In this document: in pieces, positions 1 to 59,712 of the stretch
Position numbering within the stretch: the first letter of the stretch is position 1
Layout: every line of letters begins with the position of its first letter
IMG/VR virus record: IMGVR_UViG_3300036806_000195
Span: 1 to 59,712 of that record
Length of the DNA: 59,712 nucleotides
Source of the DNA: a virus
Taxonomy: Duplodnaviria; Caudoviricetes
Direction: 5' to 3' (one strand)
Program-made: the position numbers and the translations under genes
Notes under the pieces: model-generated
Databases searched by the model: none
The model's input: the letters and a program-made list of their open reading frames with translations, nothing else
Told to the model about the DNA's origin: nothing

Positions 1-127
1 AATTTTTATGTCTCTTATGCCCAGTCCTCTTTCAACTGAGGTCGATTTCAACTCATTCACAGCAAAAAGGGAAGGTGACGTAAACAACTTTGATCTAGCG
101 CCACTTAAACCCAGTCGCTTGATTTTT
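1..127. repeat. Terminal direct repeat identical to 59586-59712 (circular assembly overlap)
   Basis: aatttttatgtctcttatgccc...cgcttgattttt occurs at both ends; 127 bp matches a common assembler k-mer; the ORF reads through the junction. Confidence 0.95.
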
Positions 128-781
128 GCCAGTGAAAGCCTAAAAAGCCAGTCGCTGAATCCTGCCAAGATCAAACAACTGACGGGAGGCGACAGGATAC
201 GAGCTTGTTTTAAGCACAAGAACTTTTTTGAGTACAGACCTCAGTTTAAGGTCTGGATGCTTTCAAACTGGCCTGTGAATGGAGACCCTGAGGATGATGC
301 TTTGTGGGGCCGTGTTCGGGTGATTGAGTTTCCCAATAGTTTTCTAGGCAAGGAAGACAAATCTAAGAAAGAGAGGCTTAGGGACCCAGAAGCTCTAGAA
401 GGTATTCTAGCCTGGGTTATAGAAGGGGCTATAGCGTGGTATGCATTAGGATCATCAGGATTGACTACTCCTGACGTTATAGCAACAACTACTAAGAAAC
501 AGCGTGAAGAGCTAGACTATGTACAGCAGTGGCTAGACGAATGTTGTGAAGAGAACGAAGGGTACTGGACATCGAATGAGGACGTTAGCAAAAGCTATGC
601 TGCATGGTGTAAGGGAAATAACGTGCAATTCCCCAAGGGTCCGAAAGCTCTAGCTCAGAGTCTGCAAGCCAAAGGTTTTATCACCGGTGTGCAAAAAAAA
701 GTTGAGGGTAAAAACAAAAAGGGTGTAAACGGGCTCTACATCTACCCTGAGAGTCATGAAGAATTTGGAGGTAACGGGTAA
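1..781 (+). CDS. C-terminal part of primase-polymerase/D5-like (P4-type) SF3 helicase; gene starts at 58012 and spans the circular junction
   Basis: IKQLTGGDRIRACFKHKNFFEYRPQFK and LWGRVRVIEF are typical D5/P4 helicase motifs; in frame with ATG 58012. Confidence 0.9.
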   Translation, partial: IFMSLMPSPLSTEVDFNSFTAKREGDVNNFDLAPLKPSRLIFASESLKSQSLNPAKIKQLTGGDRIRACFKHKNFFEYRPQFKVWMLSNWPVNGDPEDDALWGRVRVIEFPNSFLGKEDKSKKERLRDPEALEGILAWVIEGAIAWYALGSSGLTTPDVIATTTKKQREELDYVQQWLDECCEENEGYWTSNEDVSKSYAAWCKGNNVQFPKGPKALAQSLQAKGFITGVQKKVEGKNKKGVNGLYIYPESHEEFGGNG

Positions 782-873
782 CGATCCGTAACGTGAGTCC
801 AGGGTTTTTCGCTTTATATATTTTATACGCGAGATCTTATAGGAATGAAACGTTACAAACGTTACCCGTTACC
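770..873. promoter_or_regulatory. Putative replication origin: inverted GTAACG/CGTTAC repeats around an AT-rich core
   Basis: ggtaacgggtaacg (770-783) and cgttacccgttacc (860-873) form a perfect 14-bp inverted repeat, with a third hexamer on each side; directly after the primase-helicase. Confidence 0.6.
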
Positions 874-892
874 ATGAAAAAAGGATAATAAG

Positions 893-1168
893 ATGGCATT
901 CATTTGTGGACTGGTAGACCCAAGGACTGATGAAGTTAGGTATATTGGACAGACAAAATATCAGTACAGACGCTATGAGCAACACATTAAGAACTTGGAC
1001 AAGAAAAATGTAGAAAAACAAGAATGGATAGCAGAACTCAAAGGTGTTGGACTGCTTCCGACGCGCGTCATTCTAGAGAGTGATGTTGAGTGGGAGAAAA
1101 GGTTTGAACGTGAGAAGTACTGGATACGTCATTATCGGGAACAAGGTTTATCGCTAACAAATTTGTAG
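893..1168 (+). CDS. GIY-YIG nuclease family protein
   Basis: FICGLVDPRTDEVRYIGQT...R...H...EKYWI pattern. Confidence 0.7.
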   Translation: MAFICGLVDPRTDEVRYIGQTKYQYRRYEQHIKNLDKKNVEKQEWIAELKGVGLLPTRVILESDVEWEKRFEREKYWIRHYREQGLSLTNL

Positions 1169-1218
1169 CAAATCATATAGTCAATGACTATAGTAAAACA
1201 GGATAGGAGCAAGATTAG

Positions 1219-1515
1219 ATGAAACCAACACAAGTACACTGTAAAAGTGCTCATTATGTAGTAGATGGGAAAGATATCTATATCCCGATTATATGCCTGG
1301 GATGTCAGAAAAAAGGGCTGGTCTTGGTGTATAACCCTGTGGAAGCGAGAATGGAGGCTATGTGCAGCGCAAGAGAGGACCAGATAGGCAGATTTATCAA
1401 AGGGTGCGATAAAGTCTCTTTTGCTGTACCAATGACAGAACACGAGTTCAATACCATTGTAGATGACCCTCACACGACTGACTACTTCTTCTATCTCAAG
1501 ACACTATCGATGTAG
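1219..1515 (+). CDS. hypothetical protein
   Basis: ORF with AGGAG RBS, in operon. Confidence 0.6.
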   Translation: MKPTQVHCKSAHYVVDGKDIYIPIICLGCQKKGLVLVYNPVEARMEAMCSAREDQIGRFIKGCDKVSFAVPMTEHEFNTIVDDPHTTDYFFYLKTLSM

Positions 1516-2786: not shown

Positions 2787-3230
2787 ATGAGTGAGCCATT
2801 CCTGCAAGCGACCTTGCCTCTGCCGACTTCAACCAATGCGTCGAGAGTGCCTGTGAATGGCCGTCTCATCTCAAGTAGAGAGCTCAAGCAATTCAAGAGT
2901 GATGCTCACATGCTCCTCATTAAGACAGTCCTTGATATGCCAGATGAGGATAAAAGCGAGTATCTACGAATAAAGAACATGGTACTCGCTGCAAGTAAAA
3001 CGAGGAACAAGAAGATACCCATAGCTCTAGATATCACCGCCTATCTAGAGACGTTGTGGAGGCGCGATACGAGCAATTTTATCAAAGCTCTAGAAGATGT
3101 GGTATTCGAGCATATGGGTATCAACGACAATCTTGTGGTGGATATTCACATCAGGAAAGAAGTTGATAGAGCGCATCCAAGAGTTGAGATAGCTATTCGT
3201 ATTTTTGAGGAGGTAGGTGTAACAGCATGA
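2787..3230 (+). CDS. rusA: RusA-family Holliday junction resolvase
   Basis: LPLPTSTN, RRDTSNFIKALEDVV, INDNLVV, PRVEIAI motifs. Confidence 0.85.
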   Translation: MSEPFLQATLPLPTSTNASRVPVNGRLISSRELKQFKSDAHMLLIKTVLDMPDEDKSEYLRIKNMVLAASKTRNKKIPIALDITAYLETLWRRDTSNFIKALEDVVFEHMGINDNLVVDIHIRKEVDRAHPRVEIAIRIFEEVGVTA

Positions 3231-4255: not shown

Positions 4256-5284
4256 ATGCAAGAACTGACTCCACAGGCCTCTACCGAAATATTCACCAAT
4301 TATAGCTACATGCTTGAAAATGGTGAGAATATTGACATATCTTTACCTGCTATCGTTGTAGAACACGATAGCCGTCTTGTAGGTTTGTGGCTCAGCAGCA
4401 AGTCCCTGAAGTCTCAACAGGCTTACGCTCATGAAATCGCTCGTTTCTATCGAATTGCACAAAAGCCTGTACAGCAGGTTATTATCGACGACTTGTATGC
4501 TTTCATGAAACATCCAGAAGTACAGAAATTAAAAGCATCTTCGCAATCACGCGCTCTTGCTGCCGTTAAAAGCCTGCTTACTTATGCCTCTAATGCTGCT
4601 GTTGGCGTTTTGCCCGTCAATGTAGGTGTGGCTATAAAACTTCCCAAAGTTGAGGATACGCTAGCTGAGCGCATTATGAGTGAGCAGAGCATTGATGACA
4701 TGATACGCAAAGAGTCCAATCCAAAGTATCAAGCAATGCTCGAATTGCTTTATTTTGGAGCTTTGCGCGTAGAGGAACTGTGTAACCTCAAATGGAGGCA
4801 TCTGCAAGAACGTGACCAGACAGGCCAAATTGCTGTCTACGGCAAGGGAAAACACACGCGCTATGTCCTGCTCGACAGCGACACATGGGCAAAGATTTGG
4901 GCTTTACGTGCTACCTCGACCAGGACTGGAGCTGAGGACTACGTGTTTAGCTCTCGACAGGCGAAAAAGCGGGCAGGGGAAGATGGAACCGAGATCAGGG
5001 ATTACAGGTTGGATGAGTCGCGAGTTCACCAGATCGTGAGAGCTGCAGCAGACAGAGCAGGCATAGCAATAGGAAAAGTATCACCTCACTGGATGAGACA
5101 TGCTCATGCGACTCATGCTCTAGACAATGGAGAGCCGATTAGTTTAGTGCAGCAGACGCTGGGACACAAGAGTGTCGCGACTACTGGCAGATATTTGCAT
5201 GTAAGGCCAAACGCGAGTACTGCTCTAGGATTAAGGTCAGCGCAAAAGAGAAGGAATGAGGGAAAGAATGCCGAGAGAGAGTAA
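4256..5284 (+). CDS. XerC/D-like tyrosine recombinase
   Basis: catalytic set LRVEE, GKG, HWMRH, LGH, TTGRY; core-binding N-domain. Confidence 0.93.
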   Translation: MQELTPQASTEIFTNYSYMLENGENIDISLPAIVVEHDSRLVGLWLSSKSLKSQQAYAHEIARFYRIAQKPVQQVIIDDLYAFMKHPEVQKLKASSQSRALAAVKSLLTYASNAAVGVLPVNVGVAIKLPKVEDTLAERIMSEQSIDDMIRKESNPKYQAMLELLYFGALRVEELCNLKWRHLQERDQTGQIAVYGKGKHTRYVLLDSDTWAKIWALRATSTRTGAEDYVFSSRQAKKRAGEDGTEIRDYRLDESRVHQIVRAAADRAGIAIGKVSPHWMRHAHATHALDNGEPISLVQQTLGHKSVATTGRYLHVRPNASTALGLRSAQKRRNEGKNAERE

Positions 5285-5910: not shown

Positions 5911-5966
5911 AAAATCTATAGAAATCTACAAGCTTTCACAGAAATATGTAGATTTCTATAGATTTT
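5911..5966. repeat. 20-bp perfect inverted repeat with 16-bp spacer upstream of the RNA cluster
   Basis: aaaatctatagaaatctaca / tgtagatttctatagatttt; TGTTATGCT -10-like element follows. Confidence 0.85.
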
Positions 5967-6222: not shown

Positions 6223-6297
6223 GCATGAGTAGCTTAGTTGGTGAAAGCGCTGTCTTCATAAGACAGAGATGCGCGAGTTCAAATCTCGCCTCATGCA
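6223..6297 (+). tRNA. tRNA with CAT anticodon (Met or Ile2); no encoded CCA
   Basis: gcatgag/ctcatgc acceptor, ctgtc-ttCATaa-gacag, gcgag-ttcaaat-ctcgc. Confidence 0.85.
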
Positions 6298-6302
6298 CGT
6301 AT

Positions 6303-6374
6303 TCTCCCTTAGCTCAGTGGCAGAGCGCGAGCGTGAAGACCTCGGCGTCGGTGGTTCAATTCCATCAGGGAGAG
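6303..6374 (+). tRNA. tRNA-Phe(GAA), with a C-C mismatch closing the anticodon stem; no encoded CCA
   Basis: tctccct/agggaga acceptor, gctc-agtggca-gagc D-arm, loop gtGAAga, ggtgg-ttcaatt-ccatc. Confidence 0.75.
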
Positions 6375-6376
6375 CT

Positions 6377-7745: not shown

Positions 7746-8405
7746 ATGGATGAGGAACGCAAAGTATGGGAACAGAATATAGAGCAAGGGGAGCCTGATC
7801 TCTGGTATGGTCGGTTCGTCAAATTCATGCGCTTGGGAACTAGACGCTCCGTGAACGCTATATTTCAAAAAGAAGCCAAGAAAAGCCAAGAGAAAACAAG
7901 AACGAATGCGGGCCCAGAATGGTACGAAGCTGCAAAACAATGGAATTGGGCTCAAAGAGCAAAAGAGTATGATACATATCAAAGATCGGAAGAAGACAGG
8001 ATTATAGAAGAGGAACGAGAGAAAGTGCTTAGATCTGGCTTTGCTTTGCAGCATAAGCGTATCGAGTTACTTGATAAGCTCTCTCGCAAGTTGATCAGAT
8101 ATGCCAACGATGAGGAAAAGGTATGGATTCCGGAGACGAAAACAACCTCATTTGGAGAGGATAAGTCGCAAGTCGTCGAGAAAGTCACGTTCAATGCTCC
8201 ACTCTTTCAGCAGATTAGGAGTTACCAGGCGGACATAGCCGCTGAAATGGGAGAGCGAGTCAAGAAAACTGAAATCACCGGCAAGAATGGCGGCCCTATT
8301 CAGATGGAACGTGATCCAAACCTACAACTTCTCACAGATGAAGAATTAGCGCAAGCCCAACGTCTTGCAACACAGCTTTCAAGCAGGCAGGAAGGTATTG
8401 AATGA
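7746..8405 (+). CDS. terS: Terminase small subunit
   Basis: position before TerL; W..RA..YD motif; C-terminal EITGKNGGPIQ and LTDEEL. Confidence 0.75.
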   Translation: MDEERKVWEQNIEQGEPDLWYGRFVKFMRLGTRRSVNAIFQKEAKKSQEKTRTNAGPEWYEAAKQWNWAQRAKEYDTYQRSEEDRIIEEEREKVLRSGFALQHKRIELLDKLSRKLIRYANDEEKVWIPETKTTSFGEDKSQVVEKVTFNAPLFQQIRSYQADIAAEMGERVKKTEITGKNGGPIQMERDPNLQLLTDEELAQAQRLATQLSSRQEGIE

Positions 8406-9973
8406 CATCAGTGTTGCAAGACCTAGTAGATAGCCGCAAAATAGCGAATGAAGTGCGTGAACGAGCTCGGGAGTCATTCAATGCTTTTATTCGTCTTGCA
8501 TGGGATGTTGTTGAGCCTGGTGTGCCTCTGCTATGGAATTGGCATATTGATGCAATTGCAGAGCATCTAGAGGCAGTATATAGCGGTGAGATTAATCGAT
8601 TTATCTGTAATATAGCACCTGGCCATGCAAAGTCAACGATCTTCAGTGTGATGTTTCCCTGCTGGATGTGGATCAAGAATCCTACCACGAGATGGCTTTG
8701 TGCCTCTCACAGCCTAGATTTAGCTATTCGGGATAGTCGCAATTGTCGTAATCTTATTGAGTCGGAATGGTTTCAAATGTGCTTTGGAGATATCTTTCAG
8801 CTCTCTGGAGACCAGAATGTAAAAAGCTTCTTTGAAAATAATCACCGTGGCTATCGAATGGCTCTCTCAGTTGGATCAAAGAGCGGAACAGGGAAGCGGG
8901 GCACACATCTGCTTATAGATGATCCAAATAACGCGGAAGCAGGTGAATCCGACATTGAAAAAACCATCAGGTGGTTTGGCAATACATGGATGAGTCGCAT
9001 CAATTCGTACGAAACAGGGGCCATGATAGTTGTTGGGCAGAGGGTAGGTGAAAAAGATCTTACAGGTCATATTCTTGAGCTTGGCGGTTGGGAACATCTT
9101 TGTTTGCCTGAAGAATTTGAGCCTGACCGTAAAAGTTTTACCTGTATCGTGTCCAACTCAAATAGTCCATATGCATGGAAAGGGTGTGACCCTCGCAAGG
9201 AAGAGGGTGAAGTGCTCTGGACTAATAAGTTCCCTAAAGAAATTCTCGATAACCTTAAGAAGTCAGTTGGAAGTTTCACGTATGCATCTCAGTTCCAGCA
9301 ACGCCCTGCACCCGCTGGAGGAGGACATTTCAAACAAGGCTGGTTTAGGTATTTCACCGAAGAGCGTGAGTACTATCAGCTAGAAACGTCTGAAGGCCTG
9401 AAGCGGATACTCAAGACATCCTGCTGGCTCTTTATGACTGAAGACCTAGCAATCTCGCAAAAAACCACAGCAGATTACACGGTCTTTTGCATTTGGGCCG
9501 TGACTCCTGAGAAAGACCTGTTACTCATAGCTCGACTGCGTGCACGCCTAGATAACCCCGAACAACAAAAGCAGACAGAACTATTCTATTATCGGTACCT
9601 CCCTGAATACATAAAAATAGAGTCAATAGCCTATCAATTGGCATTAGTGCAGCAATTGCGTTCACGTGGACTTCCAATCAAGCGATACAATCCAATCAAG
9701 GACAAAGTATCACGTGCTACCACAGCAGCCGTCTATTATGAGGCAGGTAAGGTATTCCATCCTAAACGTGCGAGTTGGCTTGTTGAGTGGGAAGATGAGC
9801 TTCTAGCTTTCCCGTTCGGAGCGCACGACGATCAAGTAGATAATGCGTCAATGGCATGTGATGAGATGGCTAGACCAAGAGGGGGTGGTATAGTTATCGA
9901 TACTGAGCCGGCAAAACAACACCAACAAGAACAACAGCAGTATGAAGAGGAGGATGAATTAGCATGGCGATAA
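8402..9973 (+). CDS. terL: Terminase large subunit
   Basis: NIAPGHAKST Walker A, LLIDDP Walker B, YASQFQQRP, C-terminal FPFGAHDDQVD nuclease motif. Confidence 0.95.
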   Translation: MTSVLQDLVDSRKIANEVRERARESFNAFIRLAWDVVEPGVPLLWNWHIDAIAEHLEAVYSGEINRFICNIAPGHAKSTIFSVMFPCWMWIKNPTTRWLCASHSLDLAIRDSRNCRNLIESEWFQMCFGDIFQLSGDQNVKSFFENNHRGYRMALSVGSKSGTGKRGTHLLIDDPNNAEAGESDIEKTIRWFGNTWMSRINSYETGAMIVVGQRVGEKDLTGHILELGGWEHLCLPEEFEPDRKSFTCIVSNSNSPYAWKGCDPRKEEGEVLWTNKFPKEILDNLKKSVGSFTYASQFQQRPAPAGGGHFKQGWFRYFTEEREYYQLETSEGLKRILKTSCWLFMTEDLAISQKTTADYTVFCIWAVTPEKDLLLIARLRARLDNPEQQKQTELFYYRYLPEYIKIESIAYQLALVQQLRSRGLPIKRYNPIKDKVSRATTAAVYYEAGKVFHPKRASWLVEWEDELLAFPFGAHDDQVDNASMACDEMARPRGGGIVIDTEPAKQHQQEQQQYEEEDELAWR

Positions 9974-12042
9974 GCTTCCCCAACTGGCTACGCATCCCTA
10001 AACGCCGTTCCCGTATAACAGAACGCCCATTCCAAGCACCTGCCTATCCCCCTAACTCTCATACCTCAGAGATGTATGAGCGTAATGTGGGACTCATCAA
10101 CTTTGAAGAGGCAACCAAGAGGAGTGCAAAAGCCCCTGTTTCCAGAGGGCCTAAAAACCTCTCTATGGCATGGGATGATACTTCTTTCGGGCTTGTGCGT
10201 GAGGGCTCTCAGGATGATAGGCAGAAGAAAGAGACCTGCTACTTGGTCTATTGCGGCAACCAGTGGGTTTCAGGGTGCGTAGATACGACTGCTGAGCGCA
10301 TGATATCTGGTGGCTGGGAGACTGTTGAGGTAGAACGAGGCAAGGGTAGTTCTAAAAATCAAGCAAGAGTAAAACAGCTATTTGACTTTGAGGATATAGA
10401 AGAGGATTTCTTACAGTTTTTCAACTCAATTGCAACGGATTTGCTTATATTTGGCGAAGCCTTTGCTGAGATGACATACGGCCCTGACGGCTTGGTAGCG
10501 AACCTCTACACAGTAGACTCTATAACTATGACGACACACTTTGATATGCATGGTGTCATCACAGGGTATACGCAACGCTTAGAGAAGAGTACTGAGGTTG
10601 TAAGATTTGAGCCGCGTGAGATTATCAGATGGTGGCTGCCAGATCCTAAATCGAAAAAGAAAGCGCTCTCTCCCATTGAAAAGCTGAAAGACCCAGTATT
10701 TTTAGATCGATCAATGGTGACGTGGGGTGAAAAGTTCTTTCGCCAAGGCGGGAAACCAAGTTACTGGGTAGGCATGGGGCCAGACTCCAATGAGGTTGAC
10801 GCAAGTAGATATATCAAGTGGTACAAAGAGAATTATACTGGCATGGAGAATGCACATATCCCTCCTGTGATGTATGGTGGGAGTGAGATACACGAATATG
10901 GTAAAGGTTCTATTGAGCTTGATTTTGATAAGAGCCAGGATAACCAGCGTGATAGAGCTTTGGTTGTTTATGGTGTTCCTCCAGCTATGTTGGGTATTAT
11001 CGAGAGTGGGAACATTGGAGGTGGAACGGGAGAATCTCAAAACAAGTCATTTATCTATAATAAGGTCATCCCATTAGAAAACCGTATTCTTGAGAAGCTG
11101 AATTATAGAGCAGTGAAACAAGGACTATTTATTGAGGACTGGAAAGTAAAGACGCGTCATGCGGATTATCGCGATGATAAGGATATTGCGGAAATTGAGA
11201 ACAAAGAGATCGGCAATGGGACGCTCACAAGAAATGAGGCACGCCAAGAACGAGGCCGTACAGAGGTACCAGGTGGCGACGTGCCAACTATCACTACTGG
11301 CAATGCCATCACTCCTGTAGCTCGCTTACAGACAATGGAGCAAGAGCAGACGCAGCATGCTCAACTCTCATTGCAAGGCGCTCAGCAGGCTATGCAGAAG
11401 CTTGCTCAGGGTGACCAGGATAACTCAGACAATCAAGACCAGCCTCCGGAGGATAAGCAACCTCAGCAGAAGGACAAGAATGCCAAGGCAAAAGAGGCTC
11501 TCTATCGCCAATGGCTAAGAGAAGATCTGATCGAAGCGAATAATACTGGGGTCATGGTAGCCTTCTTTTTGAAGCCTAGCGAGGCTCAAGCGCTGGTCTT
11601 AGACACTGGTGAGCCTATAGACGAGCTGCATTGCACGTTGGCATTCCTGGGGGACAAGAGTCAGCTAGGGGATACTGAGGCGCTCAAGAGAGCAGTGCAA
11701 ACCTATGCTGAGAATGCTTTTACTCTGCAAGGGTGCGTATCTGGCATAGGCCGCTTTACGTCAGTACCCGATGGTGAGCCTACTCCTGTCTATGCTTCGG
11801 TAGATGCTCCCGGGCTGCCTGAGTGGCGTCAAGATCTAGTGAAGACCTTGCAAGATGCTGGTTTCCCTCCTGATACCGCACACGGCTATACACCTCATAT
11901 AACCCTCTCGTATATCCCTGTTAGTGATCCTATGCCAATAGAGAGTGTTCCTGCTATTGATCTGAGCTTTGATCTGCTCTGGCTGGCAATTGGTGATGAG
12001 CGATATGCATATGCATTAGAGAGGGAAGAAGATAATGGCTAG
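9964..12042 (+). CDS. Portal protein with C-terminal 2H phosphoesterase domain
   Basis: DLLIFGEAF, VYGVPPAMLG, LTRNEARQERG portal motifs; Q/D-rich linker; LHCTLAF and PHITLSY HxT motifs. Confidence 0.88.
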   Translation: MAISFPNWLRIPKRRSRITERPFQAPAYPPNSHTSEMYERNVGLINFEEATKRSAKAPVSRGPKNLSMAWDDTSFGLVREGSQDDRQKKETCYLVYCGNQWVSGCVDTTAERMISGGWETVEVERGKGSSKNQARVKQLFDFEDIEEDFLQFFNSIATDLLIFGEAFAEMTYGPDGLVANLYTVDSITMTTHFDMHGVITGYTQRLEKSTEVVRFEPREIIRWWLPDPKSKKKALSPIEKLKDPVFLDRSMVTWGEKFFRQGGKPSYWVGMGPDSNEVDASRYIKWYKENYTGMENAHIPPVMYGGSEIHEYGKGSIELDFDKSQDNQRDRALVVYGVPPAMLGIIESGNIGGGTGESQNKSFIYNKVIPLENRILEKLNYRAVKQGLFIEDWKVKTRHADYRDDKDIAEIENKEIGNGTLTRNEARQERGRTEVPGGDVPTITTGNAITPVARLQTMEQEQTQHAQLSLQGAQQAMQKLAQGDQDNSDNQDQPPEDKQPQQKDKNAKAKEALYRQWLREDLIEANNTGVMVAFFLKPSEAQALVLDTGEPIDELHCTLAFLGDKSQLGDTEALKRAVQTYAENAFTLQGCVSGIGRFTSVPDGEPTPVYASVDAPGLPEWRQDLVKTLQDAGFPPDTAHGYTPHITLSYIPVSDPMPIESVPAIDLSFDLLWLAIGDERYAYALEREEDNG

Positions 12043-12379
12043 AATAACTGAACTGAAGAGGATTTATAGACATCGAACTGAGGAAGAGATGCACAATGCA
12101 TTGCAGCAGTTTATCGATGGTAAGCATGAGTTGCGCATTCCTCCCTACGAAGAAGACGCTGATATGGTATTAGGGGATGTGATCAATGAGCTTCTAGAGG
12201 CAAGGAAGAAGCTTGCCGTGCTTAATGCTCTGGTAGAACGGCTGCTTCCTGATAGTCAGGCACGTGAAGATGCGCTAGAACGGGCAAGTTCCGAAAAGGT
12301 GATAGAGCCATGTATAGAACTGCTACAACCTGTGAAGACTCCTTTGTATGACCTAATGCGGGAAGGAAAGAAGGAATGA
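12035..12379 (+). CDS. hypothetical protein
   Basis: coupled ORF after portal. Confidence 0.6.
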   Translation: MARITELKRIYRHRTEEEMHNALQQFIDGKHELRIPPYEEDADMVLGDVINELLEARKKLAVLNALVERLLPDSQAREDALERASSEKVIEPCIELLQPVKTPLYDLMREGKKE

Positions 12380-12573
12380 AACGCGCTATCACATGTGATA
12401 AGATGCATCGTAAGCTTGCTATGATCGATCAAACTTCTATACACTTATATTGCAAGGGATGCAAAGAAGACCATAGCATAGCGCGTGAGGAGATCAATAG
12501 GATGTGGTCCCAATTCGATGAACAACAATCTAAGCAAGAGACTAGTACATCAGAACAACGCGTGCTATACTAG
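12376..12573 (+). CDS. small zinc-ribbon protein, possibly Com-like RNA-binding regulator
   Basis: ITCDKMHRKLA...LYCKGCK; followed by GAGCC repeats. Confidence 0.5.
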   Translation: MKRAITCDKMHRKLAMIDQTSIHLYCKGCKEDHSIAREEINRMWSQFDEQQSKQETSTSEQRVLY

Positions 12574-12580
12574 TGCTAAT

Positions 12581-12669
12581 GGTTGCCTGTAGCTCAGTTG
12601 GTAGAGCGGCGTCGATATGCTTGACAGAGGACGCTCTGTCGTGGGTTCGAGTCCCACCAGGCAACCCCA
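12581..12669 (+). ncRNA. tRNA-like RNA with extended acceptor stem, CCA end and 16-nt anticodon loop
   Basis: ggttgcctg/caggcaacc+CCA, canonical D-arm gctc-agttggta-gagc, T-arm gtggg-ttcgagt-cccac; TGCTATACT promoter at 12563. Confidence 0.7.
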
Positions 12670-12683
12670 ACTGAATACGCAAC

Positions 12684-12740
12684 CATAGAGCCAAGAGCCA
12701 TAGAGCCAAGAGCCAACCTTTCGGGGTTAGGCTCTTTTTT
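12684..12740 (+). terminator. Four GAGCC repeats overlapping an intrinsic terminator
   Basis: (catagagccaagagc)x2, then agagccaacc-tttcg-gggttaggctct followed by a T run. Confidence 0.7.
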
Positions 12741-12758
12741 TATTGTCGAGAGGTACCA

Positions 12759-13916
12759 ATGGAAGACCGCATAGCTAGCATTAAATCCTATTTCTTACAG
12801 GACGATGCCATATCTCTGAATGGCCGTAAATATCCCAAGGAGACTGTTGACCGTCTTTTGCTCCATGCTCAAGAGCAACTTGCAGATCCGAATGCCCTCC
12901 CACTTACCTGCTACCTCTCACATGATGATGCTTGGCTTGACGCAACGCGTAATATCGTTGGCAAGATTGTGGGTATAGGCCGCGAACGAGACTGGCTTTA
13001 CGCTATGATCGATGTACCAGACACTCAGGCAGGCCATGATGCTGCCGAGCTTACCAAGGGTGGCTATATCCGATCACAGAGCTTGCGTGCTATCAATGCT
13101 GAGATGTTCATAGACAAGAACGAGCCTCTTCCTTTGGTCGGTGGTCAAAACATTTGTCTCACTGGCATTGATTTCACTTCATCGCCTGGCATTCCTAATG
13201 CACGCGTAGAATACGTTTCAGAATCATCTGAATCTAAAGAACCTCAAAATATCCGAGAAATCTTTCACACTTCTAAAGACACTCTACTCATTGAAGAATT
13301 CACACGTCAGGAGAGCAAGGATATTCCTGCATCTCCTAAAGAAAAGGAGCAATCTATGACACCAGAGGAAAAAGCTCAGCTCCTGAAGGAGTTCAGGGAA
13401 TCTCTCCTAGCTGAACAGCAACAGCAGAAGGAAGCTGAGAAGCACCCACCGCAAGGGGGCGACGCTACTATTCCTGTTCAGACCAAGCCGACCGCTGAGG
13501 ATGCATTGAAGGTCCTGCAAGAGGCTGGCTACACAGTCGCAGCCCCCAAGACGCAAGAGGAGATCATGCAAGAGAAAGCTGATCAGATGCTTGCGAAGAT
13601 GAGAGAGGAATTCGATCAGAAGCTTGCAGAGGAGATGAAAAAGTTTCAGCCTCGCTTCCCTGCCCAAAGAAAAAGCATGGTTGAAGGCTCAAATGCAGAG
13701 GAGAAGCCAGCGAAGAAGCCCTACTACCGCAATGGGGACTACTTAAAAGAGCAGATGCGGGATGTAAATGTGCGTCTTGATTTACTTGACCGCTCAAAGC
13801 CAAGGCCAGAGTGGTACAACGCCGAACGGATGCTCAAGGAGCTTGAAGTCGAGCTGATGGGTATCATGGATGCTCAGCATAGCTTTGATAATAGCTTACA
13901 GATGGGAGAAGTATAA
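12759..13916 (+). CDS. Prohead protease/scaffold protein
   Basis: N-terminal SLNGRKYP...SH...SLR...GIDFTSSPG protease-like domain, charged coiled-coil C-terminus; precedes MCP. Confidence 0.75.
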   Translation: MEDRIASIKSYFLQDDAISLNGRKYPKETVDRLLLHAQEQLADPNALPLTCYLSHDDAWLDATRNIVGKIVGIGRERDWLYAMIDVPDTQAGHDAAELTKGGYIRSQSLRAINAEMFIDKNEPLPLVGGQNICLTGIDFTSSPGIPNARVEYVSESSESKEPQNIREIFHTSKDTLLIEEFTRQESKDIPASPKEKEQSMTPEEKAQLLKEFRESLLAEQQQQKEAEKHPPQGGDATIPVQTKPTAEDALKVLQEAGYTVAAPKTQEEIMQEKADQMLAKMREEFDQKLAEEMKKFQPRFPAQRKSMVEGSNAEEKPAKKPYYRNGDYLKEQMRDVNVRLDLLDRSKPRPEWYNAERMLKELEVELMGIMDAQHSFDNSLQMGEV

Positions 13917-13917
13917 T

Positions 13918-15369: not shown

Positions 15370-15627
15370 GTGGCGAAATATCAGAAGAAAACGGTCATTG
15401 TAGACGCTGTCCAGTTTGATCCTGGTCAAAATCCATGGCCTGAAGGAGTAAAACCCTGGAGAGATAATCAACCTCGTCCAAGGGATATGAGCCATGGGTA
15501 CATAGACACGTCTAAGGGTAGAACATCAGTTGTGGCAGGCGATTGGATTGTTGTGGAACAAGGCAAGAAGTCTGTCTGTAAGCCAGAAGTTTTTGAGGCT
15601 ACTTATGTGCCTGCGGAGGTGATTTGA
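15370..15627 (+). CDS. conserved phage protein
   Basis: KYQKKTVIVDAVQF...GDWIV...CKPEVFEATY pattern. Confidence 0.7.
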   Translation: MAKYQKKTVIVDAVQFDPGQNPWPEGVKPWRDNQPRPRDMSHGYIDTSKGRTSVVAGDWIVVEQGKKSVCKPEVFEATYVPAEVI

Positions 15628-16034
15628 TGTCGATACTTTTCTGTCACCCAGAGAAAGATGATGGATCTGTTGTCATGTCTGAAGAGCGAATCGGAGGACA
15701 GCTTACTCCTGAAAGACGCTATCAGCACATTGGCCATTTCTTAGAAGTTGATGCTCCTCCTAATGCCAGGGAGCATGACATCGAACAGCTTCAGCAGCTT
15801 GGTTATCGATTAGCTACTGCTGAAGAGCAAAACAAGTTCACGAAGCAGAAAAAGAAAAGCCAGACGGTTGATGAAACCCTGCCTCCCAAAAGCGAGGAGA
15901 CTCCTCAAGTTGGAACTGGCGATCAAGGAGAGGATATTCCACCTGTAGTTCCGCCTGAGAATGAGTCTACCAATCCCACGCAGCAAGAAACGCCCACTGT
16001 GGATTCTCTGCCAAAAGATCACAAGAAGAAATAG
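15627..16034 (+). CDS. hypothetical virion-associated protein
   Basis: GGAGG RBS; low-complexity C-terminus. Confidence 0.6.
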   Translation: MSILFCHPEKDDGSVVMSEERIGGQLTPERRYQHIGHFLEVDAPPNAREHDIEQLQQLGYRLATAEEQNKFTKQKKKSQTVDETLPPKSEETPQVGTGDQGEDIPPVVPPENESTNPTQQETPTVDSLPKDHKKK

Positions 16035-16054
16035 CTATCAAAAAGAGGGAAGAC

Positions 16055-17280: not shown

Positions 17281-17281
17281 T

Positions 17282-17707: not shown

Positions 17708-17749
17708 CAGGAGGCATACTATGATGCATACCTCCTCCTGGTTTATTAG

Positions 17750-18736: not shown

Positions 18737-18884
18737 GCGGTAGACCTCCTATGTCTATCGTCACGCCAGCGGTTGTTTCAGCAACGCGCTGGCAAACCCA
18801 TATTTAGATGGGTTAATTTTACCACAAACCCGCTCCAAAGGCCAGCTTATACCTCCTTTAGCTTTGCGAAAGGAGGTGTTTGCC

Positions 18885-19385: not shown

Positions 19386-19393
19386 GGAGAAAT

Positions 19394-19684: not shown

Positions 19685-19688
19685 AACC

Positions 19689-19889: not shown

Positions 19890-19906
19890 ATGAAAGAAGG
19901 TAAGTT

Positions 19907-42886: not shown

Positions 42887-42967
42887 GTCTGTGTGACTGT
42901 GTGTGTGAAGGATAATTAAGCTCAAAAATCCGAGTTTGCGTCCGCACACACACACAGTCACACAGAC
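42887..42967. repeat. 21-bp perfect inverted repeat of GT-rich units
   Basis: gtctgtgtgactgtgtgtgtg (42887-42907) / cacacacacagtcacacagac (42947-42967). Confidence 0.9.
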
Positions 42968-47073: not shown

Positions 47074-47976
47074 ATGGCACTTCAAATCAAGAAAGCTGTA
47101 AAGTACGGCGCAAAAATGAGACTAGCTCTTTACGGGCCTGCGGGCAGTGGAAAAACCTACACCTCGCTATCCATTGCTCGTGAGATAGCTGGTGATAAGC
47201 GTGTTCTGGTTATCGACACGGAGCGCGGCTCGGCTAGCAAGTACGCTGACACCTTTGACTTCGATGTCATAGAGTTACCAAATTTCCACCCACATACATA
47301 CATCGAAGCTATCAAGATGGCAGTAGCAGCCAAGGAATACAGCGTGCTTATCATCGACTCTGCTACTCATGAATGGGATGGGACGAAAGGCGCTCTTGAG
47401 CTAGCTGGAGAAAAGTTCCAAAATTGGGCTAAAGTTACCCCGATGCATAATGCATTTATTGATGCAATGCTCGATGCTGATATCCACCTGATCTGTACCA
47501 TGCGCGCAAAAGAAGAGCATGTGATGGAGAACGTTGTGGGAAAGGAAAAGCCTCAAGTTCGCTCAATAGGCATTGAGCCCATTCAACGCAAATACATGCA
47601 GTATGAGTTCGATGTGGTTGGATCGTTGGATGTAGATAATAATCTCAGTGTGGTAAAGACCAGGTGCTCAGAGTTGCACGGGTCAAACTTTTACCGGGCT
47701 GGCAAACAAATTGCTGATACTATGCTGAGATGGCTTGACGGTATTCCTGCTCCGCAGCCACAGATTAAGCATGCGGGAGCATTGGAGACTACCCCTATAT
47801 CAGCGGGATCCACTAATGACGGTCCTGCTACAGAGCAGCAAATGCAAACCATTGCGCGGCTTCAGAGCCAACTAGGACTAGAGCCTGCACCACTAGACGG
47901 GCTATCCTTTGCTGATTGCGCTCAGCTCATCAAGGATTACAGCCATCAGATAAACGCGAGAAGGAAAAGTGCATAA
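47074..47976 (+). CDS. AAA_24/Sak4-like ATPase (recombination)
   Basis: YGPAGSGKT, IDTERGS, IIDSATHEW, YEFD. Confidence 0.85.
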   Translation: MALQIKKAVKYGAKMRLALYGPAGSGKTYTSLSIAREIAGDKRVLVIDTERGSASKYADTFDFDVIELPNFHPHTYIEAIKMAVAAKEYSVLIIDSATHEWDGTKGALELAGEKFQNWAKVTPMHNAFIDAMLDADIHLICTMRAKEEHVMENVVGKEKPQVRSIGIEPIQRKYMQYEFDVVGSLDVDNNLSVVKTRCSELHGSNFYRAGKQIADTMLRWLDGIPAPQPQIKHAGALETTPISAGSTNDGPATEQQMQTIARLQSQLGLEPAPLDGLSFADCAQLIKDYSHQINARRKSA

Positions 47977-55738: not shown

Positions 55739-56872
55739 ATGAAATACCGAATAAATGACATTGTTGTAGGAGAGAGAAAACGAGAGTCTAGCGACGTTGC
55801 AGCATTGGCTGAAAGCATTAAAGAAATCGGGTTAATCAATCCAATCACCATTAGACCGGATGGCACTCTTAATACTGGGCTGAATCGACTAGAAGCATGC
55901 AGGTCTTTAGGTTGGGATGAGATTGAAGTCAACATCACACAGCTTGAAGACTTGGATGCTGAGCTAGCAGAGATTGACGAGAACCTTATCCGTAACGAGC
56001 TGCACTGGGCAGATAGAGACAAGCAACTCAAGAGACGCAAAGAAATTTATGAGACAAAGCACCCTGAGACAAAACGAGGCAATAACATAGAAAAGACTCT
56101 TTTAAGATCAAAAGAGGAAGTGAATCCGAATAATTCGGATTCACTTCCCGGATTCTCTCAAGACACTGCAAATAAATCTGGACTATCTAGGGACACTATA
56201 GAACAGGGCATCAAACGAGCTACCGCTTTTACAGATGATCAGATGAAAACCTTGAAGCAAGCAGAAGTCACCCAGACAGAAGCAACAAAGATAGCGCGGT
56301 TGCCTCAACCGGAAAGAGAGGAAGTCGTCAAGCAGGTATCCAAGGGTGTCCCCACTGCTCTGCTAACCAGCGAGACCAACGAATGGTATACCCCCCCTGA
56401 GTATGTAGCGATGGCCCGTAAATTGATGAAAGGCATAGACCTAGATCCGGCTAGCAACGCCTACGCAAACGAGAGAGTAGTACAGGCTAAAGACTTTTAC
56501 GATATCCAGGCAAATGGATTAGACAAAGAGTGGCGCGGCCGTGTCTGGTTAAATCCCCCTTACGGACGTGATGAGGGCGGGAGCAATCAAGAGGCATGGT
56601 CACGTCGGCTTATTGAACAATATGAGGCGGGTATCACTAAAGAGGCTATCTTGCTCGTCAATGCCAACACTGAGGCAAAATGGTTTCAGCCGCTCTATAA
56701 CTACCTCATCTGCTTTACTAACCACAGAATACGCTTCTATAACACTGAGGGCACCTCTAGCCAGCCTACACAAGGGAATGCATTCATCTATTTTGGACAC
56801 CAGAAAGACCGTTTTACTGAGCTTTTCAGCACCTTTGGCGTCGTTATACGGAGGATTGATAATGGTTGCTAA
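55739..56872 (+). CDS. ParB-like N-terminal domain fused to phage N6-adenine DNA methyltransferase
   Basis: LAESIKEIGLINPITI...GLNRLEA...DENLIR; EWYTPP, DLDPAS, WLNPPYG. Confidence 0.88.
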   Translation: MKYRINDIVVGERKRESSDVAALAESIKEIGLINPITIRPDGTLNTGLNRLEACRSLGWDEIEVNITQLEDLDAELAEIDENLIRNELHWADRDKQLKRRKEIYETKHPETKRGNNIEKTLLRSKEEVNPNNSDSLPGFSQDTANKSGLSRDTIEQGIKRATAFTDDQMKTLKQAEVTQTEATKIARLPQPEREEVVKQVSKGVPTALLTSETNEWYTPPEYVAMARKLMKGIDLDPASNAYANERVVQAKDFYDIQANGLDKEWRGRVWLNPPYGRDEGGSNQEAWSRRLIEQYEAGITKEAILLVNANTEAKWFQPLYNYLICFTNHRIRFYNTEGTSSQPTQGNAFIYFGHQKDRFTELFSTFGVVIRRIDNGC

Positions 56873-57431: not shown

Positions 57432-57547
57432 ACACTACACGCATGAACAAGCTTATGAATTATACGGGCATAACGCTCTCGAATAGATGTTATAGGGGAG
57501 TTACACAAGAAATGAGGCAAAGAGAAAGGGACGAGTATGCCCCGTCC

Positions 57548-57847
57548 CTACGATGCAACGATTATGTCCTGGGGGGACTCTTCTTCAAGCAGCTCTTCGG
57601 ACGTCGGCGCACGATAATCAGTCTCGGCAAAGATCCTTGCCGACTCCTCTGGAGTACATCTCAATGCCCGGCAAATTCTCAGCAAACTATCACGCGATGG
57701 ATTCGATCCGCCATGCATAATTCGGTAGATTTGGCTGTAATTCAGCCGAGCATCAACTGCCAGATGTCCCAATCCGCAACCTTTTTGAACACGAATAGTA
57801 TCAATCCGCATTCCAAGAAGACTCAATTGACTTGTTTTTCTCGGCAT
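57548..57847 (-). CDS. XRE-family repressor divergent from the primase gene
   Basis: LAVDARLNYSQIYRIMHGGSNPSRDSLLRICRAL. Confidence 0.8.
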   Translation of the reverse strand: MPRKTSQLSLLGMRIDTIRVQKGCGLGHLAVDARLNYSQIYRIMHGGSNPSRDSLLRICRALRCTPEESARIFAETDYRAPTSEELLEEESPQDIIVAS

Positions 57848-57869
57848 TTATTCCTTCCCCCGTTATGTC

Positions 57870-57993
57870 TTGACATGCAATATTGCATGGTGTACAATAT
57901 CAATATTGCGCTATATGCAATATATGGTACTTGCAAAGCGCTAAAAAGTCAAGTGGCCATTGGGCACAATTCTTAATAAAAACTGCAATATTT
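57870..57993. promoter_or_regulatory. Divergent promoter with repeated TGCAATAT operators
   Basis: TTGACA...TACAAT; palindrome atgcaatattgcat and further (g)caatat copies. Confidence 0.65.
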
Positions 57994-58011
57994 TTAGTTG
58001 AGAGGCGACAC

Positions 58012-59712
58012 ATGGAAGATGTCATCGTAACTCGTCTCAGGGACCTGAAGCAGTTCCCTCAGTGGGTTTGCTATTCACACAAAAGCAAGGTCCCACTGGA
58101 CCCTCACACAGGGAAGGGTGCTGATTGCAACAACCCCGATGATTGGGGGTCCTACGATCTAGCACGCGCAACCTGGGCTGGCAATAGAGGATGGTACGCA
58201 GGACTCGGGTTTGAGTTTGTCAAAGATCAAGAAATTACAGGGATTGATCTAGACAAGTGCGTAACAGACGGTATTATATCAGACTATGCAAAAGGTATCC
58301 TAGAACGCATTAACTCCTATTCAGAATTCTCTCCGAGTGGCACTGGCATCCATATTCTGGTAAAAGGCAACATTCCTTCTAATCTCGACTCTGATCCGAC
58401 TGGAGTCACCAAGGTCGAGATGTACGATCATCAACGGTATTTTGCTGTTACAGGACGCCATGTCCCTGGAACTCCTGAAACCATTGAAGACCGTCAAGAG
58501 GAATTGACTGCTCTCCATGCTGAGATAGCTGCAATTCGAGCCGCTTCAAAAGCACCTAAGCAGAGGCCAAAGTACATAGAACTGCTTCCTAAGCCCGATA
58601 GTCCCTATGGCAGTCCTTACGGTATCAGCGCTCTACAAGCTGAGTGCGTCAATATGGCAATGGCTGTCAATGGCAGTCGCAACACTCAGCTCAATCGCTC
58701 AGCCTACGCACTTGGTCAACTTCTTACAGGTGGTGAGATACGAGATAGATCCTATATAGAGAGGGAGCTAGGCGCGGCTGCTCAGGGTGTAGGACTTGGA
58801 GACCGTGAAATTGAGCACACTATGAGGAGTGGCTTGGAAGATGGTATGCAAGAGCCTCGTTCAGCACCTCCTACTCTGAAGTCTACAACCTGGAAGGACT
58901 ACGAACCTGAGATGGACACACCCACTGGTAGCAACGGACAGCAGGAACCTCCTAGCAACGATCCACCTCCAAAAGAAATCACAGCAGAAGACCTCTGCAA
59001 ATTCACTGAGGATGATGCCGGCAATGGGGACGCTATGTATGCCTTGTATGGTAAAGACTTCCTCTTCTGCCCTTCTCGCGGATGGTTCCGGTATATAGAT
59101 ACCCACTGGGAGCTTGACGAGGACGGCGCTAGCGTAAAAAGGTATGCTGTAAAGACCTTGCGCAAGCGTAGACACGCTGCTGTGGAGCTAGGAGCTGAGG
59201 CAGTCGTTAAATGCACCAAGGGAGATGCTAATAAGGTAAGTGGCTGTATTGATCGGTTTAGAACTCTTGTCAATGTCAGCATCGATGAGTTCGACAGGCA
59301 TCCTGATATCATCAACTGCAAGAATGGAGTAGTTAATCTGCGCAATGGCAGTATCGAACCACATAGCCGTAGCCAGCGATTTACCTACTGCATGCCAGTT
59401 GCTTATAGGCCAGAGACTGTTTGTCTGGAATGGCTTGACTACCTAGATGGGGTAGTTGGCGGCGGACGGGAAGTTATTGACTACCTCCAAATGGCCCTAG
59501 GCTATTCGATGACTGGTCACACCAGGGAAGAAGTCCTCTTCTACCTCTACGGACCTACAAGAAGCGGGAAAGGTACGATATCAGAAATTTTTATGTCTCT
59601 TATGCCCAGTCCTCTTTCAACTGAGGTCGATTTCAACTCATTCACAGCAAAAAGGGAAGGTGACGTAAACAACTTTGATCTAGCGCCACTTAAACCCAGT
59701 CGCTTGATTTTT
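58012..59712 (+). CDS. Primase-polymerase (AEP) / D5-like helicase, N-terminal part (missing from ORF track because it crosses the end; full protein 784 aa)
   Basis: QWVCY, GIDLDKC, EFSPSGTGIH, EMYD...RYFAVTG; INCKNGVVNL; LYGPTRSGKGT Walker A. Confidence 0.9.
   Translation, partial: MEDVIVTRLRDLKQFPQWVCYSHKSKVPLDPHTGKGADCNNPDDWGSYDLARATWAGNRGWYAGLGFEFVKDQEITGIDLDKCVTDGIISDYAKGILERINSYSEFSPSGTGIHILVKGNIPSNLDSDPTGVTKVEMYDHQRYFAVTGRHVPGTPETIEDRQEELTALHAEIAAIRAASKAPKQRPKYIELLPKPDSPYGSPYGISALQAECVNMAMAVNGSRNTQLNRSAYALGQLLTGGEIRDRSYIERELGAAAQGVGLGDREIEHTMRSGLEDGMQEPRSAPPTLKSTTWKDYEPEMDTPTGSNGQQEPPSNDPPPKEITAEDLCKFTEDDAGNGDAMYALYGKDFLFCPSRGWFRYIDTHWELDEDGASVKRYAVKTLRKRRHAAVELGAEAVVKCTKGDANKVSGCIDRFRTLVNVSIDEFDRHPDIINCKNGVVNLRNGSIEPHSRSQRFTYCMPVAYRPETVCLEWLDYLDGVVGGGREVIDYLQMALGYSMTGHTREEVLFYLYGPTRSGKGTISEIFMSLMPSPLSTEVDFNSFTAKREGDVNNFDLAPLKPSRLIF

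Follow-up and report, generated by a model that had tools for sequence, protein, structure and literature searches.

The sequence considered here, IMG/VR record IMGVR_UViG_3300036806_000195, is a Caudoviricetes genome of 59,712 nt; we refer to the whole of it (positions 1 to 59,712) as the window. Our main subject is a cassette of three genes at 40947-44205, predicted to encode an FtsK-fold ATPase and two membrane proteins, together with an array of short direct repeats inside the last of these genes. The first 127 nt of the window (1..127) match the last 127 nt (59586-59712) exactly, which leaves a unique length of 59,585 bp without the terminal overlap, and IMG/VR classes the record as 'direct terminal repeats'. 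A Logan contig from run X1, a bulk soil metagenome, measures 59,615 nt (59,585 + 30) at a depth of 43 and bridges the window junction; window positions 1-20000 correspond to its positions 16628-36627 with 0 differences. Run X1 is possibly the source sample, so that the contig represents an independent assembler rather than an independent sample. In a different soil sample, X3, the same sequence is present as low-depth fragments (31 of 33 contigs at 99% identity or more). Because the ends overlap by 127 nt and a second assembly is permuted across the junction, the circle is closed, as the original prediction had claimed. With its virion and lysis genes, the window is a complete, circularly assembled tailed-phage genome from soil; CheckV estimates a completeness of 71 despite the end repeat. 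The comparison with sequencing runs covered the assembled contigs of four soil runs, and no RNA run is among the runs listed as holders of the window sequence. Loose contig ends at 6122/6306 and 12657-12717 were discarded as tRNA-like or low-complexity matches from other organisms.

Genes were analyzed as 102 open reading frame (ORF) translations, a greedy choice from all ORFs of at least 50 aa plus alternatives; all 102 were scanned against Pfam and PHROGs, and 18 of them against NCBIfam. The three cassette genes lie on the plus strand. The first (40947..41447) encodes a 166-aa membrane protein with about three transmembrane (TM) helices, the second (41450..42880) a 476-aa ATPase of the FtsK superfamily, and the third (42988..44205) a 405-aa protein with four TM helices, a long coiled coil and a C-terminal helix-turn-helix (HTH) domain resembling HTH_23. 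A perfect 21-nt inverted repeat with a 39-nt spacer (42887..42967) separates the second gene from the third. It is rich in GTGT/CACA and folds into a hairpin of -52.4 kcal/mol (z -10.1), with no T-run behind it, and it is not conserved in other cassettes. The 166-aa protein is homologous to the product of the gene upstream of the ATPase in viral contig L002 (28%, E 3e-11), and the 405-aa protein to that of the gene following the ATPase in contig G108:C685 (27% over 392 aa, E 6e-25). A DUF2637 assignment for the 405-aa protein, suggested by an Atlas lead (score 0.76), was dropped: the domain is absent from Pfam scans of five family members at E-values up to 5.

The ATPase is laid out as an N-terminal helical hairpin (residues 16-70), a motor with Walker A (168-176) and Walker B (252-259) motifs, and a C-terminal three-helix HTH (428-467). 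It matches the PHROG 'FtsK/SpoIIIE-like' at 1.4e-13 and Pfam DUF87 at 2.2e-6. A search of Protein Data Bank (PDB) sequences with the ATPase profile returned nothing significant (FtsK at E 0.19), and the C-terminal 57 aa likewise gave nothing. The AlphaFold2 model has a pLDDT of 72.8, rising above 90 in the motor region. Foldseek aligned this model with the FtsK motor (6t8b, E 3.8e-11) and with TcpA, the pCW3 coupling protein (6o1x, 2.2e-10); EssC/EccC and HerA were also matched, and FtsK, TcpA and EssC all fall within E 1e-11 to 1e-8. Judged from the model, the ATPase has an FtsK fold. The N-terminal hairpin is predicted to be clearly hydrophobic in the homologues L002, G016, L118, L119, L122 and L124, and we predict that the protein is membrane-associated through its N terminus. 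When modelled alone, the C-terminal three-helix bundle shows a weak likeness to generic HTH and winged HTH (wHTH) domains. The family is metagenomic: a word search found 20 proteins, and a profile search retrieved 1,691 cluster representatives at E <=1e-3, 224 of them at <=1e-30. Ten distant clusters of the family carry names consisting solely of 'hypothetical protein'.

Within the gene for the 405-aa protein, nine GTGTCCAGT direct repeats (43478..44010, plus strand) form the array that we propose as a clt-like cis site. Copies of the motif GTGTCCAG number 11 in the window, where 1.66 are expected, and 0 of 100 shuffles reach 11; nine of these copies are confined to 43519-43979, all on the plus strand. 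Its core TGTCCA is found 15 times in the array, in two reading frames, with 8 further inverted copies, and 34 times in the remaining 58 kb. At the codon level, VSS tripeptides are written GTG-TCC-AGT in nine cases out of 11, while in 16 long phage genes GTG makes up 22% of Val codons, and TCC and AGT 9% and 17% of Ser codons. The Leu and Gln codons adjoining the VSS tripeptides vary. We compared the gene with 2000 synonymous-codon shuffles, in which codons were permuted within the gene so that protein and codon composition stayed fixed. None of the 2000 reached nine copies, and none ever contained more than five copies of any 8-mer. Since synonymous shuffles never reproduce the nine copies, the repeat is held at the DNA level, and the GTGTCCAGT array is kept by DNA-level selection.

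Element-specific 8-mer arrays are found at the same place in five of the six examined cassettes that have a homologous downstream gene. The L002 cassette contains five copies of AGTACACC, with none elsewhere in 11 kb (6 of 2000 shuffles reach this count), and that of G108:C685 contains six copies of TGACGCAT plus three inverted ones (0 of 2000). In both of these, the same 8-mer is read in two frames and encodes different peptides. Five copies of CAGGGCCA are present in G048:C103 (1 of 2000). In G016:C4, all six plus-strand copies of GGGAGCCA in a 53.6-kb contig are gathered in a single 800-nt interval over the 3' half of the gene, three of them in-gene and in one frame; here the shuffle test scored the top in-gene 8-mer, GGAGCCAC, present four times (21 of 2000). 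For comparison, an array of at least five copies of any 8-mer was seen in 16 of 80 unrelated prophage control loci (1.29 Mb).

These repeats may also be viewed in a more ordinary light: the ATPase would be a poorly understood FtsK/HerA-like phage gene, acting for example in exclusion, defence or anti-defence, and the repeats would be the DNA shadow of a coiled coil kept uniform by recent duplication or gene conversion. The repeat units, of 42-72 nt, are 68-83% alike, and the nine full copies of the window all fall in a single reading frame. This single frame, together with spacings of 21, 42 and 63 nt that fit the coiled-coil heptad, indicates that protein constraint contributes. HerA-type ATPases are found in defence systems, and SIR2/HerA is within the Foldseek list. 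The L003 cassette, of which L004 is a near-identical second record, is devoid of an array (1621 of 2000 shuffles reach its count). Against this view, synonymous-codon shuffles fail to yield the arrays in five of six genes, and in both L002 and G108:C685 one 8-mer encodes different peptides in two frames. While the units have otherwise diverged by about 30%, the 9-mer within them does not vary. Furthermore, homologues have kept an array but not the protein sequence of the stretch that bears it. We see only a slim chance that nothing more than this is at work.

The original prediction had taken the product of 42988-44205 for an O-like initiator and the repeats for its iterons, and had accordingly counted a second replication module. 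The likeness to lambda O lies in repeats placed within the coding sequence of a DNA-binding protein. In lambda, the origin comprises four 19-bp iterons with an AT-rich flank inside the O gene, whereas the window has nine to fifteen repeats of 8-9 bp. The encoded protein has no match to Phage_rep_O, lambda-O or any other Rep family at E <=0.01 in Pfam, PHROGs or NCBIfam, and its N terminus is made of four membrane helices, which together rule out the initiator identity. The direct repeats themselves are real, but they are not iterons of a second origin, and the second replication module is left unsupported. By analogy with known transfer systems, the repeats appear better explained as a clt-like recognition array than as iterons.

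The systems in question are those of Streptomyces plasmids. TraB is an FtsK-like translocase whose C-terminal wHTH binds the 8-bp direct repeats of clt, and clt sites are in general arrays of 7-9-bp direct repeats bound by this domain (PMC4447253, PMC3583192). The partners of TraB are Spd membrane proteins, among which SpdB2 is described as having four TM helices, DNA binding and pore formation. The clt of pJV1 contains nine 9-bp direct repeats and inverted repeats; that of pWTY27 has four 7-bp repeats, and the cognate TraA carries two N-terminal TM segments (PMC3583192). Transfer of SCP2 and of the plasmid-phage pZL12 requires tra plus two adjacent genes (PMC3583192). [quoted passage not shown]

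The likeness of the window to the TraB-clt-Spd systems of pSVH1, pIJ101, pJV1, pWTY27 and AICEs concerns several features at once: a putatively membrane-anchored FtsK-fold ATPase with a predicted C-terminal HTH, polytopic membrane protein genes after the ATPase, an adjacent element-specific array of 7-9-bp direct repeats accompanied by an inverted repeat, and a probably mycelial host. In our own scan, pIJ101 Tra matched FtsK_SpoIIIE at 9e-10 and DUF87 weakly, and its C terminus carries a wHTH of MarR type; the window ATPase is laid out alike, with a motor and a predicted C-terminal HTH. pIJ101 SpdB matched no Pfam family. The three core modules of AICEs (PMC3218068) also have counterparts in the window, namely a tyrosine recombinase, a prim-pol/D5 helicase and the FtsK-fold ATPase, the last of them lacking the PF01580 match that serves to recognise an AICE Tra. 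In contrast to the actinomycete systems, the array of the window is inside the downstream membrane-protein gene and not at the end of tra, no GntR-type TraR/KorA regulator was seen in the window, and the carrier is a tailed phage with its most likely host in Chloroflexota rather than an element of Actinomycetales (PMC3218068).

Several negative results weigh against the reading of the cassette as a TraB-like transfer system. The ATPase does not match Pfam FtsK_SpoIIIE (PF01580). Alignment of its family with pIJ101 Tra by hhalign was limited to the P-loop and reached a probability of 24.8% (E 7.9e-4). When the cassette was compared by BLASTP with pIJ101 Tra, SpdA, SpdB and KilB, nothing came below E 0.4, and the values for SpdA, SpdB and KilB were above 1. 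The C-terminal domain has no Foldseek match at E <=1e-3, the FtsK-gamma/KOPS structure 2ve9 being ranked 29 with E 1.6. At distant ATPase loci (24-29% identity) with other downstream genes, no array was found, and tblastn with the ATPase gave no match among 72,556 plasmids and 50,697 phages (GenBank phages at E 1e-5). What stands of the claimed TraB/Spd-like cassette is therefore its architecture and not its sequence homology to Tra/Spd. By analogy, the cassette may well work like Tra/Spd systems, with family membership unproven by sequence. Another parallel is offered by FtsK-gamma/KOPS and SpoIIIE/SRS, where an FtsK-fold motor recognises 8-bp motifs through its C-terminal HTH and thereby selects and orients its DNA substrate. 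KOPS and SRS are spread over the whole chromosome with a strand skew, whereas the motif of the window is concentrated in about 500 bp and, as just noted, the gamma-domain match is weak.

The same three-gene order is found in viral contigs L002 and L003/L004, and in L003 a holin and an endolysin lie about 5 kb from the cassette. An early scan of genomes with the ATPase profile confirmed 0 of 47 candidate stretches; at E <=1e-10, the profile is matched in 10 of 121 Ktedonobacteria-class genomes. The best genome match, G016:C4 (49.6% identity in the motor), has a non-phage setting. Housekeeping genes extend up to 39.6 kb and are followed by a 1,139-aa prim-pol (42% to the prim-pol domain of the window), then by the ATPase, the 4-TM/HTH gene, a TraG-D_C coupling-protein-like gene, an HTH gene and TnsD. 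This element spans 39,842-53,549 (L105/L106); its prim-pol carries an NrS-1 HBD, and the Tn7-type TnsD is located at the contig end. In G108:C685, a tyrosine recombinase is directly followed by the ATPase and the 4-TM/HTH gene. As it is found in both settings, the cassette is a mobile-element module common to phages and integrative elements.

This distribution bears on a further possibility, that the cassette serves inside the cell. It would tether DNA to the membrane for replication or segregation, or deliver the prophage into spores or daughter compartments, and the 42988-44205 protein would bind the array, through its HTH, as a tether or a site resembling a centromere. Precedents exist for both roles: phi29 p16.7 joins a TM segment, a coiled coil and a DNA-binding domain in membrane tethering, and SpoIIIE/FtsK carry DNA into spores or daughter compartments. 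The TM, coiled-coil and HTH layout of the 405-aa protein, the position of the array in that protein's own gene and the location of the cassette in the early/replication half of the genome all agree with such a role. A related pairing is seen in the prophage of Ktedonobacteria bacterium brp13, which combines a distant FtsK-like ATPase with an actin-like gene of ALP/ParM type. That small integrative elements other than phages have the same cassette, next to a TraG-D_C coupling-protein-like gene, argues in the opposite direction, and a membrane-anchored, ATP-driven pump of FtsK type exceeds what tethering needs. On balance, we regard an intracellular role as rather unlikely, although it is the alternative that we take most seriously.

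Phages of filamentous Gram-positive hosts provide another point of comparison. FtsK-like genes are common in Streptomyces phages, and the authors reporting them suggest a replication role, which favors the intracellular alternative and counts against a transfer function. SpdB2 homologues on actinophages have on the other hand been proposed to aid the spread of phage DNA. The window shares with actinophages the presence of such an FtsK-like gene, while its ATPase, as the tblastn search above indicates, matches no GenBank phage. The parts of the literature examined make no mention of cognate repeat arrays beside actinophage FtsK-like genes.

Identification of the host relied mainly on the large terminase subunit (TerL). 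Its best identity is 36.5% in GenBank phages and 34% in PLSDB plasmids, in unrelated taxa. Among 5.8 billion proteins, the TerL relatives that bear a name come from 'Chloroflexi bacterium' (69%), from Ktedonobacteria bacterium brp13 (53%; contig of 8.88 Mb) and from Thermosporothrix hazakensis (52%). Among 185,579 species genomes, the top three matches are all Ktedonobacteria at 52-53%, against 40-41% for the next ones, and the best genome matches of TerL, integrase, endolysin and ATPase all belong to Ktedonobacteria, a mycelial and spore-forming group. The host guessed in the original prediction is thereby borne out: a mycelial member of Ktedonobacteria (Chloroflexota) is the most likely host.

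The closest relatives of the window in IMG/VR (TerL 87-89%) are fragments of 4.5-7.7 kb only, and the upstream 6.7 kb of one of them, L138, has no nucleotide similarity to the window; being short, and unrelated upstream in L138, they are uninformative on integration. Five proteins of the window have counterparts in the brp13 region: TerL (53%), tape measure (33%), amidase (50%), RusA (35%) and recombinase (49.5%). This full prophage is inside an 8.88-Mb chromosome, and one border is formed by a 432-aa integrase adjoining MFS, GH2 and MalT-like host genes; the nearest genome relative of the window is therefore integrated. Flanking att repeats of 14 nt or more were not found around the brp13 prophage, a dispersed palindrome excepted. 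That palindrome, CCCTTGCAAGGG, occurs at several places in and around the prophage (L089-L091; G001:C1 6.89-6.93 Mb) and may be a dispersed REP-like element. The distant FtsK-like ATPase (537 aa) and the actin-like ALP_N/MreB-like gene of brp13 are located beside the integrase (L091 3821-6747; G001:C1 6,933,821-6,936,747), and the two may act together in segregation, as a module of a prophage that is integrated. In brp13, the homologue of the window recombinase (L089 729-3140, G001:C1 6,890,729-6,893,140) adjoins a type I HsdM methylase gene and may belong to a phase-variable restriction-modification locus, not to the prophage.

Outside the cassette, the window has the gene content of a tailed phage, with terminase, portal, major capsid and tape measure genes all matched. 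The packaging, head and tail module (7746..31541), assigned with Pfam and PHROGs, and the lysis module form a single plus-strand block from 7.7 to 33.4 kb. It contains the small terminase subunit TerS (7746-8405), TerL (8402-9973; PHROG 2.3e-91, Pfam Terminase_6C), a portal fused to a LigT-like domain (9964-12042; PHROG 6.4e-48, Pfam Phage_portal), a protease-like protein (12759-13916), the major head protein (13870-15369; PHROG 4.5e-15), a neck protein (17282-17707), a 936-aa tape measure (22286-25096; PHROG 6.7e-54, Pfam TMP_3) and tail proteins as far as 31541. Among the 102 ORFs, Pfam and PHROGs revealed no gene for a sheath. Lysis genes (31612..33445) comprise an Amidase_2 endolysin (31612-32448), small membrane proteins and a holin (33062-33445). 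The virion and lysis gene set announced in the original prediction is thus present in full.

The portal fusion is unusual: a C-terminal 2'-5' RNA ligase/LigT-like (2H phosphoesterase) domain occupies residues ~520-690. Just upstream of the terminase are a polynucleotide-kinase-like AAA_33 gene (6604-7098) and the tRNA-Met and tRNA-Phe genes (6223..6375, plus strand), and the LigT domain, the kinase and the tRNAs together look like a tRNA-repair kit against anticodon nucleases. The window has three tRNA genes overall. The third, detected by ARAGORN at 12582-12669, is a tRNA-His of 88 nt whose anticodon, ATG, is odd (Rfam tRNA 45.8 bits). Behind it, at 12683-12716, comes a 15-nt tandem repeat of AGAGCCA units; each of the four soil runs has short contigs of very high depth that match this repeat but lack 1 nt at 12701.

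A divergent regulatory region (33837..37605) follows the lysis genes. It includes, on the minus strand, a 60-aa excisionase-like HTH_17 protein (33837-34019), a 218-aa MerR/HTH_17 protein (34201-34857) and two genes with no assigned function, and then, on the plus strand, an HTH_3 regulator of Cro/CI type (37336-37605). In this region, a 288-aa minus-strand gene of no known function (35647-36513) contains a 21-nt tandem repeat, in 3.7 copies at 36015-36093, which also makes inverted pairs. Between the regulatory region and the cassette are nine small plus-strand ORFs of 62-168 aa (38447..40940), several with 4-nt start/stop overlaps; none of the nine was assigned a family with Pfam or PHROGs, and one (40737-40940) has a membrane helix.

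The early/replication half further encodes a sigma-70 factor, a LuxR-type regulator, two GIY-YIG endonucleases, a RusA-like Holliday junction resolvase (2787..3230, plus strand; Pfam/PHROGs) and a tyrosine recombinase. The two GIY-YIG homing-endonuclease-like genes and a gene seldom seen in phages, for a cysteine protease of the papain family (Peptidase_C1), are located at 893-1168, 37693-38229 and 48737-49486. A protein with an HNOB (haem-NO-binding)/V4R domain (50198-50995, minus strand) adjoins an HTH_3 regulator (50869-51399), near the sigma-70 factor (51617-52510) and the LuxR-type regulator (52852-53100); this neighbourhood may be a gas- or ligand-sensing switch. Two genes have a superficial likeness to partition functions. 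The plus-strand gene at 47074..47976 encodes an AAA_24/Sak4-like recombination ATPase, not a ParA: its ParA match (8.3e-5) is far below the cut-off and weaker than the Sak4-like match. At 55739..56872, also on the plus strand, a ParB_N nuclease-like domain is fused to a Dam-type N6-adenine methyltransferase, and this is not a partition ParB.

The primase-helicase frame spans the circular junction. Its 5' part (58012..59712, plus strand; prim-pol N terminus and D5_N) continues at 128..781 with the 3' part (DUF5906/Pox_D5 helicase, P4-family primase C-terminal domain), and a single reading of 784 aa is obtained once the overlap is removed. About 90 nt upstream of its start are two tandem palindromic 23-mers (CAATATTG...CAATAT; 57878..57923), whose RNA fold is unexceptional (z -1.28). 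The claim of a primase-helicase with an inverted-repeat origin holds for the gene and for the palindromes, the latter being, on sequence grounds, a candidate operator or origin.

The tyrosine recombinase (4256..5284, plus strand; Pfam/PHROGs/NCBIfam) has a SAM-like N-domain and is Xer-like. It scores 123-135 bits against Xer equivalog models, whose cut-offs are 220-335, the Xer-type models being still the best scoring; its identity is 49.5% to the brp13 homologue and 48.5% to a homologue in the Ktedonobacteria-class contig G022:C521. Downstream (5911..5966) is a perfect inverted repeat, with arms of 20 nt around a spacer of 16 nt; each arm contains two AAATCTA units. This inverted repeat recurs about 380 nt downstream of the recombinase in G022:C521, where 19 of 20 arm positions are kept, with a compensatory G>A/C>T pair and an unrelated spacer. 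Judged from this recurrence, it is probably the partner site of the recombinase; since it folds well as RNA (-28.8 kcal/mol, z -5.5), it could be a terminator instead. The original prediction had spoken of a Xer-like recombinase with a dif-like site. A dif core measures 28 bp in an 11-6-11 layout, to which arms of 20 nt around a 16-nt spacer do not correspond. A tyrosine recombinase with a nearby inverted repeat is indeed present, but neither the dif geometry nor the Xer cut-offs are matched.

These elements had led to the idea of a self-transmissible extrachromosomal phage-plasmid with two origins and Xer/dif dimer resolution. The closed circle at depth 43 in bulk soil, with no host junction in window positions 1-20000, is in keeping with this idea, as are a recombinase that scores best against Xer-type models and its adjoining conserved inverted repeat. 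Moreover, P4-family primase-helicases serve elements that are able to live as plasmids. A precedent is Streptomyces pZL12, whose transfer genes were mentioned above (PMC3583192) and which, like pSLE1, joins virion genes to a tra gene and adjacent conjugal-transfer genes in a mycelial host. However, pZL12 and pSLE1 carry ParAB and replicate as plasmids (PMC4487206), whereas no ParA, partition ParB, ParM, TubZ or plasmid Rep was found among the 102 ORFs with Pfam, PHROGs and NCBIfam. In extrachromosomal mycobacteriophages, parABS replaces the integrase (PMC7157519); here, an integrase-type recombinase is present, along with excisionase-like HTH_17 genes. The supposed second initiator is the 4-TM protein described above. 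PLSDB contains no related plasmid (TerL 34% at best, ATPase no match), and the nearest genome relative, brp13, is chromosomal. Scans of the 102 ORFs also found no family of relaxase, VirB4 or VirD4 type. The circle itself does not distinguish a plasmid, since permuted virion DNA or replicating phage DNA would assemble in the same way. We thus find the plasmid lifestyle unsupported, the label of phage-plasmid needing evidence of episomal maintenance, and consider the full scenario of a self-transmissible plasmid with two origins decidedly improbable.

The best explanation of the gene content, as far as sequence can tell, is a temperate, long-tailed phage, whose tyrosine recombinase most likely serves prophage integration and not the resolution of plasmid dimers. 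Two results weigh against integration. Window positions 5667-6603 gave no match of att-type identity, and hence no attB, in 169 Ktedonobacteria-class genomes: 14 of these genomes were matched, by tRNA-like sequence (up to 89% over 53 nt), by short weak matches and by the inverted-repeat homologue. In addition, while the X1 contig crosses the circular junction, no host-phage junction was found in contigs over window positions 1-20000, so that integration is unproven. Taking all this together, we hold integration as a prophage to be moderately probable and maintenance as an episome to be unlikely.

From these elements, the following mechanism can be proposed. The GTGTCCAGT repeats would be a cis-acting recognition array bound by one of the HTH domains of the cassette, and because of this proposed binding, the pump would act on the element's own double-stranded DNA. 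The ATPase would be of hexameric type, anchored by its N-terminal hairpin and assisted by polytopic membrane partners, in parallel with TraB acting on 8-bp clt repeats with Spd-type partners in Streptomyces plasmids and AICEs. Its likely purpose, in a filamentous host, would be the transport of the phage or prophage genome through septa or from one hypha to another. That the window belongs to a temperate phage of mycelial Ktedonobacteria with a TraB/clt-like DNA pump moving its own genome, besides virions, has in our opinion an even chance of being correct. The stronger proposition, that the phage does spread both as virions and by pumping its double-stranded DNA genome through a TraB/clt-type machine shared with integrative elements, we put forward tentatively, as a possibility by analogy that is more doubtful than the former.

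What is new relative to the original prediction is the nature of the supposed iterons: they make up one among at least five 8-mer arrays, each specific to its element, that go with a conserved cassette of FtsK-fold ATPase and membrane proteins in Ktedonobacteria phages and integrative elements. The concept of a phage with conjugal transfer genes, as such, is already realised in pZL12. We found no description of a TraB/clt-like cassette in Ktedonobacteria phages or integrative elements in the open-access papers searched. TraB and clt double-stranded DNA conjugation has so far been treated as a speciality of Actinomycetales (PMC3218068); the arrangement described here may be a TraB/clt-like one outside actinomycetes. 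The repeats are then to be reread, not as iterons of a second origin, but as a handle on the old idea that phages of mycelial hosts spread DNA through the mycelium: there are five arrays, made of different 8-mers, and each goes with an ATPase and HTH proteins of its own. Besides the actinomycetes, Ktedonobacteria are the other familiar lineage that forms mycelia and spores, and the presence of a cassette of the same logic in their phages and integrative elements suggests that the mechanism follows the filamentous lifestyle rather than one phylum. If this is true, double-stranded DNA conjugation by a single ATPase would not be confined to Actinomycetales, and would have been recruited by a virus.

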